From Enterobacteria phage ATK47, in sequence record NC_055708.1: a DNA stretch of 64,000 nt. One strand, written 5' to 3'. Of the stretch, positions 6,386-10,090 are shown piece by piece (position 1 is the first letter of the stretch; each line of letters opens with the position of its first letter). A program made the position numbers and the translations under genes. A model generated the notes under the pieces. It was not told the DNA's origin, did no database searches, and worked only from the letters and a program-made list of their open reading frames with translations.

Positions 6386-6408
6386 GGAGGACTCCGGTCC
6401 TCCTTTTG
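6386..6408 (+). terminator. rho-independent terminator (ggaggac tccg gtcctcc TTTT)
   Basis: perfect 7 bp stem and T-run. Confidence 0.6.
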
Positions 6409-6426
6409 GATAATAAAGGAGTTAAC

Positions 6427-7029
6427 ATGCGAAACCAAAATAATGATATTGACTCAATGTTCGAAGAGTTCCGAGATAAGGTAAATCCACCTACGTCCTT
6501 AGTTGATTCATTACGATATGTTGCAACCGGACGTAAATGGTACTGGTCGTCTTCTTATGAGACCACCGAGAAAACGGCTAGCCATAGCAGAAAATCTTTA
6601 TTAGCCCCAGGTATTATGATTCATGATATCGGAGCTATTGCTAAACTAGTTGCAGACCATGATATTAGATTCACTGATTTCGTTGCTCCTACGTGGTCTG
6701 TTTGTTGTTTAAACACTGAATGGGAATATATCAGCGAACGCTCTGAAGATTATTATGGTTTTAGAGATAAGCTTCTGAGGTCTAATATGTTTTATATCGA
6801 TACAGAAGTTCTAGTCGATAATAAAAAATATTACTTTACGTTAATCATCGATTCTGAAACTATGTATGAAGGCAAGCCTTTGCTTAAAAGAGTTGATGCT
6901 TTAAGTGCTATTGATGCGCTTTATGAAACTATGGTTGTTAGTCCTAATTTCACTAACAATTTAATCCTTGAGCAATTTATTATGGAATGTAGAGAATATG
7001 TCAAAGCCAACCCTATACATGCCAAGTAA
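6427..7029 (+). CDS. hypothetical protein with FIMECR motif
   Basis: 200 aa ORF, SD AAAGGAG. Confidence 0.5.
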   Translation: MRNQNNDIDSMFEEFRDKVNPPTSLVDSLRYVATGRKWYWSSSYETTEKTASHSRKSLLAPGIMIHDIGAIAKLVADHDIRFTDFVAPTWSVCCLNTEWEYISERSEDYYGFRDKLLRSNMFYIDTEVLVDNKKYYFTLIIDSETMYEGKPLLKRVDALSAIDALYETMVVSPNFTNNLILEQFIMECREYVKANPIHAK

Positions 7030-7393
7030 GCCCTGGGCGTATGAATACAAGCGTAAATTAATCCCAAATGAAGTACTATTTGGCCCTATTTTAGCTTTAG
7101 CATTTTTAATCTTTATGATTATAGGAGCTGTTTTAGATTCTAGTGAAGTTATATCGTCTGATGCAGCATTTTCATTAATGTTCGTCGCACCACTTATTGT
7201 ACCGTTTTTATTAATGCCTATTAATTGGGCGGGATATTGGCACCAAGGCCGTCATCACAGAGCCCGATTAAGAGAATGGAAAGTTCAGTGCGCAAAAGCC
7301 CAAGCTCAGTATGATGAAGCTGTTAAAAAGTATGAATATGAAGAAGCTATGGAATTCGTTAAGGAAATAAGATGCAAAAGCCTCAACTCTTAA
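7019..7393 (+). CDS. membrane protein, variant C-terminal motif (EFVKEIRC)
   Basis: hydrophobic segments; start uncertain (6998 or 7019). Confidence 0.4.
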   Translation: MPSKPWAYEYKRKLIPNEVLFGPILALAFLIFMIIGAVLDSSEVISSDAAFSLMFVAPLIVPFLLMPINWAGYWHQGRHHRARLREWKVQCAKAQAQYDEAVKKYEYEEAMEFVKEIRCKSLNS

Positions 7394-7731
7394 CCGTATG
7401 GCCTTCTCTTGGTGAGAACATTCTAATTTTTATTATGAGTATTGGCATGGGATTTGCCTTTGGATTAGTTGGATTTCTTATTGACGGCGTTGTGTTAGGA
7501 TTTATAGGGAACACTGGTGGATTCACAGACCAATGGCAGGACTTACGGTATACCCAAGCCTTTGCATCCATCGCATCATTTTGTACTGTAGTCTATTTTT
7601 ACTACGATTTTATAAACCACAACAAGAAAAATAAAAAGGTTTACGCTTCTCAAATGATTAGTTATAATGAACTCCTAGCTAGACGTGAAAATGAAACAAT
7701 CGAAAACTTTATTAAGGAATGTAGAAAATGA
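7372..7731 (+). CDS. membrane protein, C-terminal NFIKECR motif family
   Basis: two TM segments; C-terminus IENFIKECRK. Confidence 0.45.
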   Translation: MQKPQLLTVWPSLGENILIFIMSIGMGFAFGLVGFLIDGVVLGFIGNTGGFTDQWQDLRYTQAFASIASFCTVVYFYYDFINHNKKNKKVYASQMISYNELLARRENETIENFIKECRK

Positions 7732-8033
7732 GTAAGATTATTGAAATTAAAGTACCAGAGTTTAATGATGCCAAATCCGCTTCAGATGCAATTTATAAAC
7801 TTCTGAATCAAGCTGAACGTATCGAAGAAGAAGCAACAAAGATCGCAGACCAATATGCCGTATCATTTTCTGTAGGTGATTATGGTAGTGGTCGTACTTA
7901 TTATCCTAAGGGTGAAATCGTATCCCAGTGGATGAAAGATGAAATTGAAAATAATGGCGGCGATGTTAAGCGTGAAGGTAATGGATACGTTATTACTGAA
8001 GGTGCTTGGGTTTCGTCTTCTGCGTTGTGCTAA
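7728..8033 (+). CDS. small protein, C-terminal GAWVSSSALC (paralog 1 of 3)
   Basis: tandem paralogs share C-terminal motif. Confidence 0.5.
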   Translation: MSKIIEIKVPEFNDAKSASDAIYKLLNQAERIEEEATKIADQYAVSFSVGDYGSGRTYYPKGEIVSQWMKDEIENNGGDVKREGNGYVITEGAWVSSSALC

Positions 8034-8042
8034 GGAATCATT

Positions 8043-8315
8043 ATGTCTAAAGAACAAACCGAACTGGCTGAAGCTGTAGCAAAAATCTATGCAGCTATTG
8101 AGGCTGCCAAAGAAATTGCTGATAAACAAAACACAACATTCGACTTGTATCCAGCTTATGGTATGGGTGGAACCTATCATTCACCAGGACATCTTAAAGC
8201 CGATCTTGAACGTTGTACAAAAAACGGTTATGCCGAATGGGCTGACGTTTACCAATACGACTACAACCTGAGCCTCGAAACTGGTGGTTGGGTCGCATCT
8301 TCTCACACTTGCTAA
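8043..8315 (+). CDS. small protein, C-terminal GGWVASSHTC (paralog 2 of 3)
   Basis: SD AAGGAA; shared motif. Confidence 0.5.
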   Translation: MSKEQTELAEAVAKIYAAIEAAKEIADKQNTTFDLYPAYGMGGTYHSPGHLKADLERCTKNGYAEWADVYQYDYNLSLETGGWVASSHTC

Positions 8316-8324
8316 GGAAACAAT

Positions 8325-8522
8325 ATGTCTCGTGAATTAGATTGTGCTGTACGTACGGCAGTAGCTGCTCTGGAAAACCTGTTCCAAATTGCAACAGAAG
8401 AACGCGAAGAAGTTACATTATGGATTGAAGATAACGCAGGTCTGAATCTCCAGGACGCGATCTCATTATCCCACAATAGTATCACTGTTCAAGGCTGGGT
8501 ATCATCTAGTTATTCTTGCTAA
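8325..8522 (+). CDS. small protein, C-terminal QGWVSSSYSC (paralog 3 of 3)
   Basis: SD AAGGAAA; shared motif. Confidence 0.5.
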   Translation: MSRELDCAVRTAVAALENLFQIATEEREEVTLWIEDNAGLNLQDAISLSHNSITVQGWVSSSYSC

Positions 8523-8526
8523 AACA

Positions 8527-8566
8527 GTTTACAACAAGATAGGGCTATGTTATAGTAGTCCTATCA
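8527..8566 (+). promoter_or_regulatory. early promoter with -10 inside palindrome
   Basis: GTTTACA, TATAGT, inverted repeat atagggcta/tagtcctat. Confidence 0.5.
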
Positions 8567-8584
8567 AAACAAATGGAGTCCACA

Positions 8585-8824
8585 ATGATTTATTACGAAA
8601 GTATCGGAACCAAAGTGGTTGGTAAAACCATTACTCGTGAAAAGTTTGCAAAGATATTCGATATGCGTTATAAAAAATCTGAACACAAAGGCATCCGATT
8701 CGAAGATGCGCACTGTACAATTTGCCCTTATAATGAAGACATAAACGGTACAATCGTTCCATTGGTAGAGGCTTCACATGATGACCTCTGGGATGAATAT
8801 AATATCGCATGTCGTGAAATTTAA
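8585..8824 (+). CDS. hypothetical protein
   Basis: SD GGAG 6 nt before ATG at 8585. Confidence 0.45.
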   Translation: MIYYESIGTKVVGKTITREKFAKIFDMRYKKSEHKGIRFEDAHCTICPYNEDINGTIVPLVEASHDDLWDEYNIACREI

Positions 8825-8852
8825 GTTAATGAATTAATCCGAGGAAAATATT

Positions 8853-9809
8853 ATGATGTTAGTTATTGGTTCTCGTGCACTTCACTATCACGGTCTTATT
8901 GATTCTAGCGCTATTAAAAATAGTGATTGGGACTTTATTGCGGACCAAGGTTCTTGGAATGTATTCAAAAATCAAATGATGGGTGTATATGTTCACCAAG
9001 ATAACCCTGATGTCCAAGTTTTCAAATGCTTCCATAACGGACGCGAAACTCATTTTGAAGCATACATCGTTCCGGCTATCACTAACGTTCGCGAACTAGT
9101 CGGTGAACTCACTCCTGAAGATTTCACGTCTTCTTATGACCTTTTAAAATACGCCAAGAAAAATTTGACTAAAGACCGTTTGAACGGGTTTTACTGGGCA
9201 ACTCCTGAGATATGTCTTGCAATTAAGATGTCTCATCGTTTCAAGAAAAATAATCCATTCTTTTTAAAGACTATGAACCATATTCAGTATCTTCGTGGTA
9301 AAGGTGTTACACTGAACGATGAACTTACTGAAATTATGCTGAAACGCCAGAAAGAAACCTTGAATTATGCTCACCCAGTTCTTGACACTTCTAAAAGTGC
9401 GTTCTTTAAAGATGACATCTATACATATGACCATGATACTATTCATGAAGCCATTGCACTAACAGACCGTCCAGCGTATACATTTTATATGAAAGATGGT
9501 TCTGAAGTCATGACCTCACGCGAGAAGTTCGAATCATTACCAGAAATGGTCAAATTGGCCGGCGTATACGAAGAATCATGTGTACTAGCGTTAGAACGTT
9601 CTCAGATTCCTAATAACTTTGAAATCCATCCACGTGATAGTTTTATGATGGCCCTTGAAAAGGTCTGCACATCAATCACATCAGGATGGTTCCGTGAGTT
9701 CGCTTGGGAAAATTATAGCAAAGTAGTAAGTATGTACCAAAGCTTAGGACACGACGATTACGTCAAGCGTTTCAAACAAAACTTTCATATGGTAAAACCT
9801 TTCAAATAA
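8853..9809 (+). CDS. hypothetical protein (318 aa)
   Basis: long ORF with SD GAGGAAAA. Confidence 0.55.
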   Translation: MMLVIGSRALHYHGLIDSSAIKNSDWDFIADQGSWNVFKNQMMGVYVHQDNPDVQVFKCFHNGRETHFEAYIVPAITNVRELVGELTPEDFTSSYDLLKYAKKNLTKDRLNGFYWATPEICLAIKMSHRFKKNNPFFLKTMNHIQYLRGKGVTLNDELTEIMLKRQKETLNYAHPVLDTSKSAFFKDDIYTYDHDTIHEAIALTDRPAYTFYMKDGSEVMTSREKFESLPEMVKLAGVYEESCVLALERSQIPNNFEIHPRDSFMMALEKVCTSITSGWFREFAWENYSKVVSMYQSLGHDDYVKRFKQNFHMVKPFK

Positions 9810-9821
9810 TTTCACAAAACA

Positions 9822-9860
9822 GTTTACAAGGTCTGTAGTTGTTGATACTATAGACCTATC
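9822..9860 (+). promoter_or_regulatory. early promoter with palindrome aggtct/agacct
   Basis: GTTTACA, TACTAT. Confidence 0.5.
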
Positions 9861-9889
9861 AAAACAAATGAGTGAATGGAGATATAAAA

Positions 9890-10090
9890 ATGACTACTTT
9901 GAATAAACGTTTCGGTAAAGCTAAACCTGGTTGTGCAGCAGAACGTCGTTATGTTTTCGCTCAGTTAGAAGATGTAGAGTATCAGATTAATCAAGTTCAC
10001 ATTACTGGTATCGAGCCTATGTGTGGCCTTGAAGCTCTTCGTGAAGTTCGTGATGGGTATCGTCGTGACATCGAAGAAATGTCAAAATAA
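9890..10090 (+). CDS. hypothetical protein
   Basis: 66 aa ORF from ATG at 9890. Confidence 0.45.
   Translation: MTTLNKRFGKAKPGCAAERRYVFAQLEDVEYQINQVHITGIEPMCGLEALREVRDGYRRDIEEMSK

Follow-up and report, generated by a model that had tools for sequence, protein, structure and literature searches.

Enterobacteria phage ATK47 (sequence record NC_055708.1), of which a stretch of 64,000 nucleotides (nt), here called the window, was analysed, carries three small consecutive genes, designated ORF A, ORF B and ORF C (ORF, open reading frame), whose products share a short C-terminal tail ending in cysteine. These products are anciently diverged paralogs that form a module with a nucleotidyltransferase (NTase) encoded downstream, and they are most likely putative acceptor substrates which this enzyme would address via the tail; we assign this reading a probability of about 50%. 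We infer that the tail is the element engaged by the NTase, because the linkage of both components holds in either direction and independently of phage lineage, because one invariant handle is carried by divergent protein bodies, because the domain must end the protein, and because the enzyme appears to be an intact member of the MenT class. The components of the module in the window are:

7728-8033, + strand: ORF A, 101 amino acids (aa); small acidic type-A member with central loop DYGSGRTYYP and tail GAWVSSSALC
8007-8030, + strand: tail of ORF A, W-V-S-S-S-A-L-C; the invariant Trp, the Ser three residues after it (W+3) and the terminal Cys are all present
8043-8315, + strand: ORF B, 90 aa; type-B member with canonical loop AYGMGGTY and tail GGWVASSHTC
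8289-8312, + strand: tail of ORF B, W-V-A-S-S-H-T-C, located by motif scan and family alignment
8325-8522, + strand: ORF C, 65 aa; type-C short form without the YGMGG loop, tail QGWVSSSYSC
8496-8519, + strand: tail of ORF C, W-V-S-S-S-Y-S-C, located by motif scan and family alignment
8853-9809, + strand: partner gene encoding a protein of 318 aa with DUF7277 and DUF7275; NTase of the DNA polymerase beta (Pol-beta) fold with a conserved C-terminal helical domain

Three paralogous genes with a common C-terminal tail

The original prediction had described a tandem triplet of small genes, each with its own Shine-Dalgarno sequence, which share a C-terminal decapeptide and are otherwise divergent. 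Three consecutive ORFs of the predicted lengths were indeed present on the + strand, AAGGA preceded each of them, and their translation yielded the C-termini given above. In a six-frame translation of the whole window the pattern W-x-[SA]-S-S-x-x-C followed by a stop codon occurred at three sites only, namely the ends of ORFs A, B and C, while shuffling (300 shuffles) gave a mean of 0.003 matches expected by chance. The codons of the motif differed at synonymous positions (GTT/GTC/GTA; TCG/GCA/TCA; TCT/TCT/AGT) and its DNA copies shared only 67-73% identity. The motif is therefore conserved as protein and not as a DNA repeat, and a nucleotide repeat as its origin was ruled out.

Similarity was also not limited to the decapeptide; the original prediction had itself named a lack of further similarity, together with an origin of the motif as a nucleotide repeat, as decisive against a paralogous family. 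Pairwise BLASTP comparisons among A, B and C gave matches that were weak but significant as single comparisons (E = 1e-4 to 1e-3), the match between A and B (E = 1e-4) taking in YGxGxTY, and a full-length alignment was obtained once homologs had been added. In the layout that all three share, an N-terminal helix (A-x-A-V…I-A-x-E) is followed by a beta-strand (F/V-D-L) and a Gly-rich turn, after which come a variable acidic insert and, last, the terminal strand with the tail. A profile of the family recovered all three proteins (hmmsearch E-values of 3.6e-19 for A, 4.2e-23 for B and 3.8e-07 for C), which matched PHROG families of unknown function: A and B phrog_899 (E = 1.3e-22 and 3.5e-19, respectively) and C phrog_4882 (E = 7.7e-37). 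The AlphaFold2 (AF2) model of B, with a predicted local distance difference test (pLDDT) value of 87.6 and a predicted template modelling (pTM) score of 0.73, showed a long helix packed on a three-stranded sheet (H3-29, E32-35, E43-46, H48-60, H66-73, E81-85; H, helix; E, strand); the last strand holds G-G-W-V-A, and S-S-H-T-C protrudes from it. Hence, the three genes are genuine paralogs whose products have a common fold of an N-terminal helix and a three-stranded sheet, and the tandem duplication of divergent genes stood up to analysis.

The explanation that the genes are chance ORFs, or the motif a repeat in the DNA, could draw on the small size of the ORFs and on the missing annotation of ORF A in one GenBank record. 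It is refuted by the excess of the motif over chance and its synonymous codon variation, by hundreds of homologs with conserved reading frame and terminus, by the confident AF2 model and by the PHROG families, and we give it practically no weight.

The Cys-tailed protein family is restricted to phages

A profile search against 1.84 billion representatives (E <= 1e-3) returned 321 cluster representatives at 50% identity, nearly all of them 65-150 aa long and matched by the profile to their last residue. Two matches of 2,289 and 639 aa were spurious repeat matches in which the motif was missing. Among the 143 short representatives listed, which had a median length of 86 aa and a median net charge of -8, 134 ended exactly in W-x-[S/A/P]-S-S-x-x-C and 7 more contained one extra residue; GMGG was present in 125 (consensus AYGMGGTYYP), and the terminal Cys was the sole Cys in 91. 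Family members are thus small (about 60-140 aa), acidic proteins of alpha/beta fold.

When all members were pooled, 335 of 355 unique sequences ended in Cys. Nearly all of these 335 carried Ser at W+3 (334) and at W+4 (317), and the distance from Trp to Cys was 7 in 314 cases, 5 in 13 and 8 in 7. The spacing between Trp and Ser is fixed while that between Ser and Cys is flexible, even among paralogs in one genome, and the only universal invariant of the family, judged from the aligned members, is therefore a free C-terminal tail W-x-x-S-[S]-x(0-3)-Cys-COOH. The family domain was always located at the extreme C-terminus with no sequence after it in any member. Some members contained internal W-x-S-S repeats within acidic linkers. 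The tail is under extreme purifying selection and is kept in phages of Enterobacteria, Aeromonas, Pseudomonas and Acinetobacter as well as in uncultured jumbo phages.

No relatives were found in a scan of 185,579 species-representative cellular genomes, and the family therefore appears to be restricted to phages. Scans against Pfam, NCBIfam and PADLOC yielded no credible matches for A, B and C, and the matches of the family profile to sequences in the PDB were designed helical bundles only, which is a compositional artefact. Additional domains such as a helix-turn-helix (HTH) were not found in the long members scanned. The beta-grasp fold with C-terminal Gly-Gly of ubiquitin-like or sulfur-carrier proteins (ThiS, MoaD) was not present in A, B and C. 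A literature search on DUF7275, DUF7277, PF23940, PF23942, the PHROG identifiers and RB69ORF139c retrieved no papers, and broader searches retrieved general MenT/AbiE papers only.

The small genes are linked to a downstream NTase gene

The first clue to a partner was provided by the most distant homolog initially found, a tandem pair (…GGWVASSQTC and …GRWMGSSDFC) on a 371-kb jumbo-phage contig, which is located upstream of a gene for a DUF7275 protein. Linkage was examined starting from either component. The forward set comprised 43 loci, namely 39 diverse viral loci collected via the YGMGGTY motif, the window and three further loci, and all their ORFs were clustered. A homolog of the gene at 8853-9809 was present in 40 of the 43 loci, the three exceptions being contigs that end within 900 nt. 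It was the only broadly common gene family besides the small proteins and was always found downstream on the same strand, often with gaps of less than 100 nt; in the window, it starts 330 nt after ORF C. The identity of these NTases to the window protein went down to 35%, and the module was kept while NTase identity dropped to 35-40% and all other neighbours changed. An antisense ORF cluster in 27 loci was an artefact of ORFs inside the NTase gene.

The reverse set of 80 loci was collected via motifs of the large protein. Upstream of it, 69 of the 80 loci carried 1-4 small genes with the strict motif, and about 76 of the 80 carried small genes of the family; variant or shortened tails (…GWYSSHC, …NWDGSSC, …SSWVQSSC) were recognised by profile search and inspection at loci L072, L099, L115, L116, L123 and L125. 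Clustering of the large protein at 70% identity gave 47 clusters, and a partner was present in 41 of the 42 non-remote ones. Together, the two sets point to a conserved, operon-like module of two parts. A, B and C are genetically locked to the downstream NTase gene across very different phages and are therefore, as far as gene neighbourhoods indicate, module components and not free-standing effectors.

The number of small genes per locus varied from 1 to 6. Six paralogs each were found on two related contigs (L040 413-3421 and L123 2579-5537), where one copy lies downstream of the NTase gene and the tails vary in length (WMSSSDQC, WEGSAC, WTNSSTYC, WKNSSSYC, WYSSHC, WQPSAGTC).

The partner is a MenT/AbiEii-like enzyme

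The NTase family comprised 2,242 clusters at 90% identity, all of them annotated as hypothetical, and occurred in 732 isolate genomes. Its alignment revealed a Pol-beta signature with invariant G6 S7 … D25 x D27 … E69, so that the fold, the hG[GS]…DxD motif and the third carboxylate expected for a Pol-beta NTase were all present, and the AF2 model was of high confidence (pLDDT 90.9, pTM 0.85). The C-terminal domain was exceptionally conserved (SHRxKK, Y-x-HP, Y-DHD-x-x-H, GVYEE-x-CVLALER, KVCTSITSGWFRE). In a Pfam scan at E <= 1 the protein matched DUF7275 and DUF7277 only, with no match to the DUF1814/AbiEii model; NCBIfam and PADLOC gave no match, and nothing was found in sequence searches against the PDB. 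The product of the gene at 8853-9809 is a MenT/AbiEii-like Pol-beta NTase with an extra conserved helical domain and, judged by its signature, a catalytically intact enzyme of the MenT class.

Genes for RNA ligase, metallophosphoesterase and PNKP were observed near DUF7275 genes at L127 2357-3004 (Streptomyces phage Faust), L129 765-2310 (DSS3_PM1) and L003 2689-5478, and tRNA genes lie nearby in the window and in Gordonia phage Cucurbita. The NTase may accordingly be linked to RNA or tRNA repair. This neighbourhood recalls RNA-ligase-associated NTases and hints that the primary substrate of the enzyme could be RNA. The association with RNA ligase was not general, as no such family was common to most of the 43 loci. 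The jumbo-phage contig L003 also codes for Rnl1, PNKP, a DNA ligase and a ClpP-like protease, and a Gad2-family (PF26128) protein is encoded about 7 kb upstream of its module (L003 105-1220).

The triplication is ancient

A, B and C formed separate orthologous groups with the same A-B-C order in the T4-like phages of Enterobacter, Klebsiella and Yersinia; the triplication is therefore ancient and has been stably retained. Identities across these genera were 36-50% for A, 51-57% for B and 37-63% for C, compared with 65-72% for the NTase and about 60-85% for most other neighbours, and within Mosigvirus the three proteins were 96-100% identical. The original prediction of a rapidly evolving family is thus only partly supported: the protein bodies diverge faster than the NTase and most neighbours, but the duplication is old and not lineage-specific, and the tail is frozen. 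A fourth paralog type between B and C (L047 2673-2882 and L053 2896-3132; …GFWFSSSMSC and …GFWYSSSMQNC) was observed in JS98-like and Klebsiella T4-like phages and is missing from the window.

Two copies were found truncated by a frameshift with loss of the Cys tail, a type-A copy in RB69 (RB69ORF139c, 71 aa) and a type-B copy in phage mar005P1 (75 aa). They suggest that single paralogs can be lost in propagated phages and that the paralogs are partially redundant.

Genomic setting of the module

The window belongs to a Mosigvirus coliphage (RB69-like, T4-type). Over nt 6400-9900 it shares 100% identity with phage ATK48, and 97-99.7% with the remaining isolates among the best matches listed. 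The trio is located between the homolog of T4 e.3 (7372-7731) and nudE/e, in a hyperplastic early region with adjoining tRNA genes. T4 carries no A-C genes at this position and has the unrelated e.2 only; as e.2 (102 aa) also follows e.3, it was considered as an ortholog of ORF A and rejected, since the sequences are unrelated. The original prediction had viewed the trio as typical of host-interaction or anti-defence genes. Its position in the accessory e.3-nudE hyperplastic region agrees with a family of this type, and an anti-defence role is possible; the linkage to the NTase speaks against a free-standing status. Further features around the trio are:

7640-7668, + strand: T4-early-type promoter-like site GTTTACG-N17-TATAAT upstream of ORF A; consensus match only
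8528-8556, + strand: T4-early-type promoter-like site GTTTACA-N17-TATAGT that includes TG, after ORF C and ahead of the genes that follow; consensus match only
8573-8824, + strand: intervening gene of 83 aa that separates ORF C from the NTase gene; phrog_3723, residues C-x-x-C…C

The two promoter-like sequences lie on either side of the trio, and no terminator-like site was seen on the + strand from the trio to the NTase gene. Homologs of the intervening 83-aa gene occurred in close T4-like relatives only, and in other lineages the small genes were separated from the NTase gene by different genes or by none. This distribution identifies it as a lineage-specific gene outside the conserved module. 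The Shine-Dalgarno sequences of B and C overlap the preceding TAA stop codons, at 8031-8036 and 8313-8318, in the arrangement TGC-TAAGGA-N6-ATG-TCT. As this overlap is repeated at the A/B and B/C junctions, the duplicated unit apparently took in the junction. A, B and C may be translationally coupled.

The GenBank record of ATK48, although 100% identical, leaves a gap from the e.3 homolog to ORF B where ORF A remains without annotation; the gene is annotated in JK42 and others. The label "sulfurtransferase" in the records of JK42, JK45, JK36 and vB_Eco_F31 does not belong to the trio, it belongs to the e.4 homolog (6968-7393). This homolog is a predicted membrane protein without a match in a Pfam scan, and the label looks like an annotation artefact.

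A putative role of the tail in nucleotidyl transfer

In the mechanism we favour, the small proteins would be protein acceptor substrates of the NTase. Nucleotidylylation would occur on the invariant Ser at W+3, or this Ser would serve as a primer; Trp would provide an anchor, and docking could be aided, perhaps at the metal site, by the thiol or carboxylate of the terminal Cys. In this way one enzyme would modify, early in infection, several divergent bodies that carry a common handle, and the modified proteins might function in host takeover, anti-defence or RNA/tRNA-related processes. This model is preferred because several divergent paralogs with a common handle are more readily understood as many substrates of one enzyme than as many inhibitors of it, and because enzymes of the MenT/AbiEii class can act on protein serine, as reported for antitoxin-induced auto-phosphorylation (bioRxiv 10.64898/2026.01.19.700257). 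More speculatively, one MenT-like NTase might attach a nucleotide, or prime an oligonucleotide, on the tail Ser of up to six small acidic proteins, which would then represent a new class of nucleotide-tagged early phage effectors with a free terminal Cys essential to recognition or chemistry; this extended version we consider conceivable and propose tentatively.

Several observations weigh against an acceptor role. An intact NTase gene (GS…DxD) with no Cys-tailed gene recognisable within 4 kb upstream was found only at L066 and at loci of the L089 type (L089, L090, L093 and L114). In addition, Cys-tailed partners are lacking for the remote DUF7275 homologs (about 30% identity) from Gordonia, Streptomyces, Vibrio XZ1, DSS3_PM1 and Brevibacillus phages, although these homologs retain the conserved C-terminal domain and each has a small gene of some kind immediately upstream. 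A function of the enzyme that is independent of the small proteins is therefore probable, which favours a regulatory or adaptor role for the latter. MenAT1 furthermore provides a precedent for a small upstream protein that acts as inhibitor and not as substrate (PMC10435456), and simple nucleotidylylation of Ser does not account for the terminal Cys. Concerning the remote homologs, the small gene upstream of the one in Brevibacillus phage Sundance (gp088, L128 2758-3039) ends in an acidic repeat, EEEEYSSSYYEEEEYSSSYYEED, and its C-terminal end is Ser-rich and contains neither Cys nor Trp; its product may be a counterpart of the Cys-tailed partners that uses another kind of tail.

These points lead to a possible, albeit tentative, explanation in which the small acidic proteins are antitoxin-like or pseudosubstrate regulators that hold the MenT-like NTase inactive or tune it, with the tail inserted in the active site. 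The 3'-OH of the acceptor would be mimicked by the Ser hydroxyl, the Cys thiol or carboxylate would contact the catalytic metals, and the NTase itself would act on RNA, e.g. tRNA 3' ends. A small acidic gene upstream of an NTase gene corresponds to the order in type II/VII toxin-antitoxin systems and in MenA1-MenT1, where the upstream MenA1 (68 aa) blocks the active site of MenT1 (PMC10435456). The faster evolution of the partner bodies compared with the enzyme, the presence of some small acidic gene upstream of remote homologs that lack Cys-tailed partners, the existence of a few NTases that stand alone, and the RNA ligase, PNKP or tRNA genes found close by in a number of unrelated phages likewise agree with regulation. 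A simple inhibitor, however, would not be expected as 1-6 divergent paralogs per enzyme with A, B and C each kept across genera; moreover, neither sequence nor fold matched MenA1 or AbiEi, no DNA-binding domain was found in the long members scanned, and the gain for a virulent phage from an addiction-type toxin-antitoxin pair is not evident.

Free-standing host-interaction or anti-defence effectors, with acidic bodies as possible nucleic-acid mimics and a tail that binds a conserved host factor, would owe their position next to the NTase gene to co-regulation or a shared pathway. The early hyperplastic location, the absence of the genes from T4 itself, the strongly acidic character (median net charge -8), the internal W-x-S-S repeats in acidic linkers of some members, which resemble a short linear binding motif, and the frameshifted and hence dispensable copies in RB69 and mar005P1 are compatible with this idea. 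We nevertheless judge it unlikely: the tail is invariant over a wide phage range over which the NTase is the only constant neighbour, and a linkage near 100% in both directions is hard to explain without direct functional dependence. Even less probable, and in our estimation highly unlikely, is that the proteins are precursors resembling ribosomally synthesised and post-translationally modified peptides, in which the tail Ser, adenylylated by the NTase, would be dehydrated and the C-terminal Cys incorporated into a lanthionine or aminovinyl-cysteine (AviCys) ring. The canonical tail does hold S-x-x-C-COOH, resembling the AviCys motif, and several tandem "precursor" genes do precede one enzyme. 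Ring formation is unlikely because the Ser-to-Cys spacing varies within and between genomes, down to …SSC, because confidently predicted folded domains of 65-100 aa take the place of leader-core peptides, and because genes for LanB/LanM/LanD, YcaO or radical-SAM enzymes were not found in the neighbourhoods.

Comparison with known systems

Enzymes of the MenT/AbiEii (DUF1814) class add nucleotides to tRNA 3' ends and are toxic unless neutralised by the product of an adjacent gene. The closest known system is MenAT1 (MenA1-MenT1) of Mycobacterium tuberculosis, in which MenA1 takes the position of A-C as a small gene upstream of a MenT-like NTase gene. Unlike A, B and C, MenA1 is single-copy and has no conserved C-terminal Cys tail, its C-terminus being dispensable (PMC10435456), and it shows no detectable similarity to them in sequence or fold. 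The phage enzyme is about 120 aa longer than MenT1, contains the extra highly conserved helical domain and lacks a DUF1814 Pfam match, and MenAT1 is a bacterial chromosomal system whereas the genes described here belong to a virulent phage. In AbiE, MenAT3 and MenAT4 (type VII toxin-antitoxin systems) the partner is a protein of roughly 200-300 aa with a winged HTH and a C-terminal domain, in contrast to the acidic proteins of 65-100 aa found here; the modified serine is situated on the NTase itself, and these systems serve bacterial abortive-infection defence, whereas the genes described here are carried by a phage.

In HepT-MntA, a minimal Pol-beta NTase nucleotidylylates (poly-AMPylates) a small partner at a hydroxyl side chain within a conserved motif, which is the same logic as proposed here for the tail Ser. 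The partner in that system is a HEPN RNase modified on Tyr, and the NTase of about 130 aa lacks the DUF7275 domain; A, B and C showed neither motif nor fold of HEPN proteins. In the CitX/MdcG and CitD/MdcC systems, the operon for an enzyme of the NTase superfamily also codes for a small acidic carrier protein, and the enzyme places a nucleotide-derived group on one of its serines. These systems are bacterial and metabolic, their carriers differ in fold and motif, and the thiol is contributed by the prosthetic group and not, as here, by the terminal Cys of the protein itself. RlaP is a phage-encoded Pol-beta NTase of jumbo phages found near RNA ligase and RNA-repair genes (PMC7824862), a setting similar to that of several loci analysed here. 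The passage on RlaP mentions no Cys-tailed small partner (PMC7824862), the NTase of the window matches the DUF7275 and DUF7277 Pfam families only, and the association with RNA ligase does not extend to the loci in general.

Significance of the module

Both components of the module are widespread and yet annotated only as "hypothetical" or "DUF", and carriers of the NTase include many therapeutic-candidate coliphages as well as phages of Klebsiella, Acinetobacter, Aeromonas and Pseudomonas. The module is at least a new form of the theme of an NTase with a small partner, being phage-borne and distinguished by a partner in multiple copies, an invariant Cys tail, an additional domain in the enzyme and no sequence-level membership in DUF1814. 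Enzymes of the MenT/AbiEii class are otherwise known as bacterial toxins and abortive-infection effectors, and an invariant tail of eight residues that ends in a free Cys and is locked to such an enzyme provides a sharply defined hypothesis. If the small proteins are acceptor substrates, they would constitute a new protein-nucleotidylylation system; if they are regulators, the module would represent a phage-borne NTase with pseudosubstrate regulators. Either outcome would widen the known roles of MenT-like enzymes and explain what this conserved accessory cassette of T4-like phages does.

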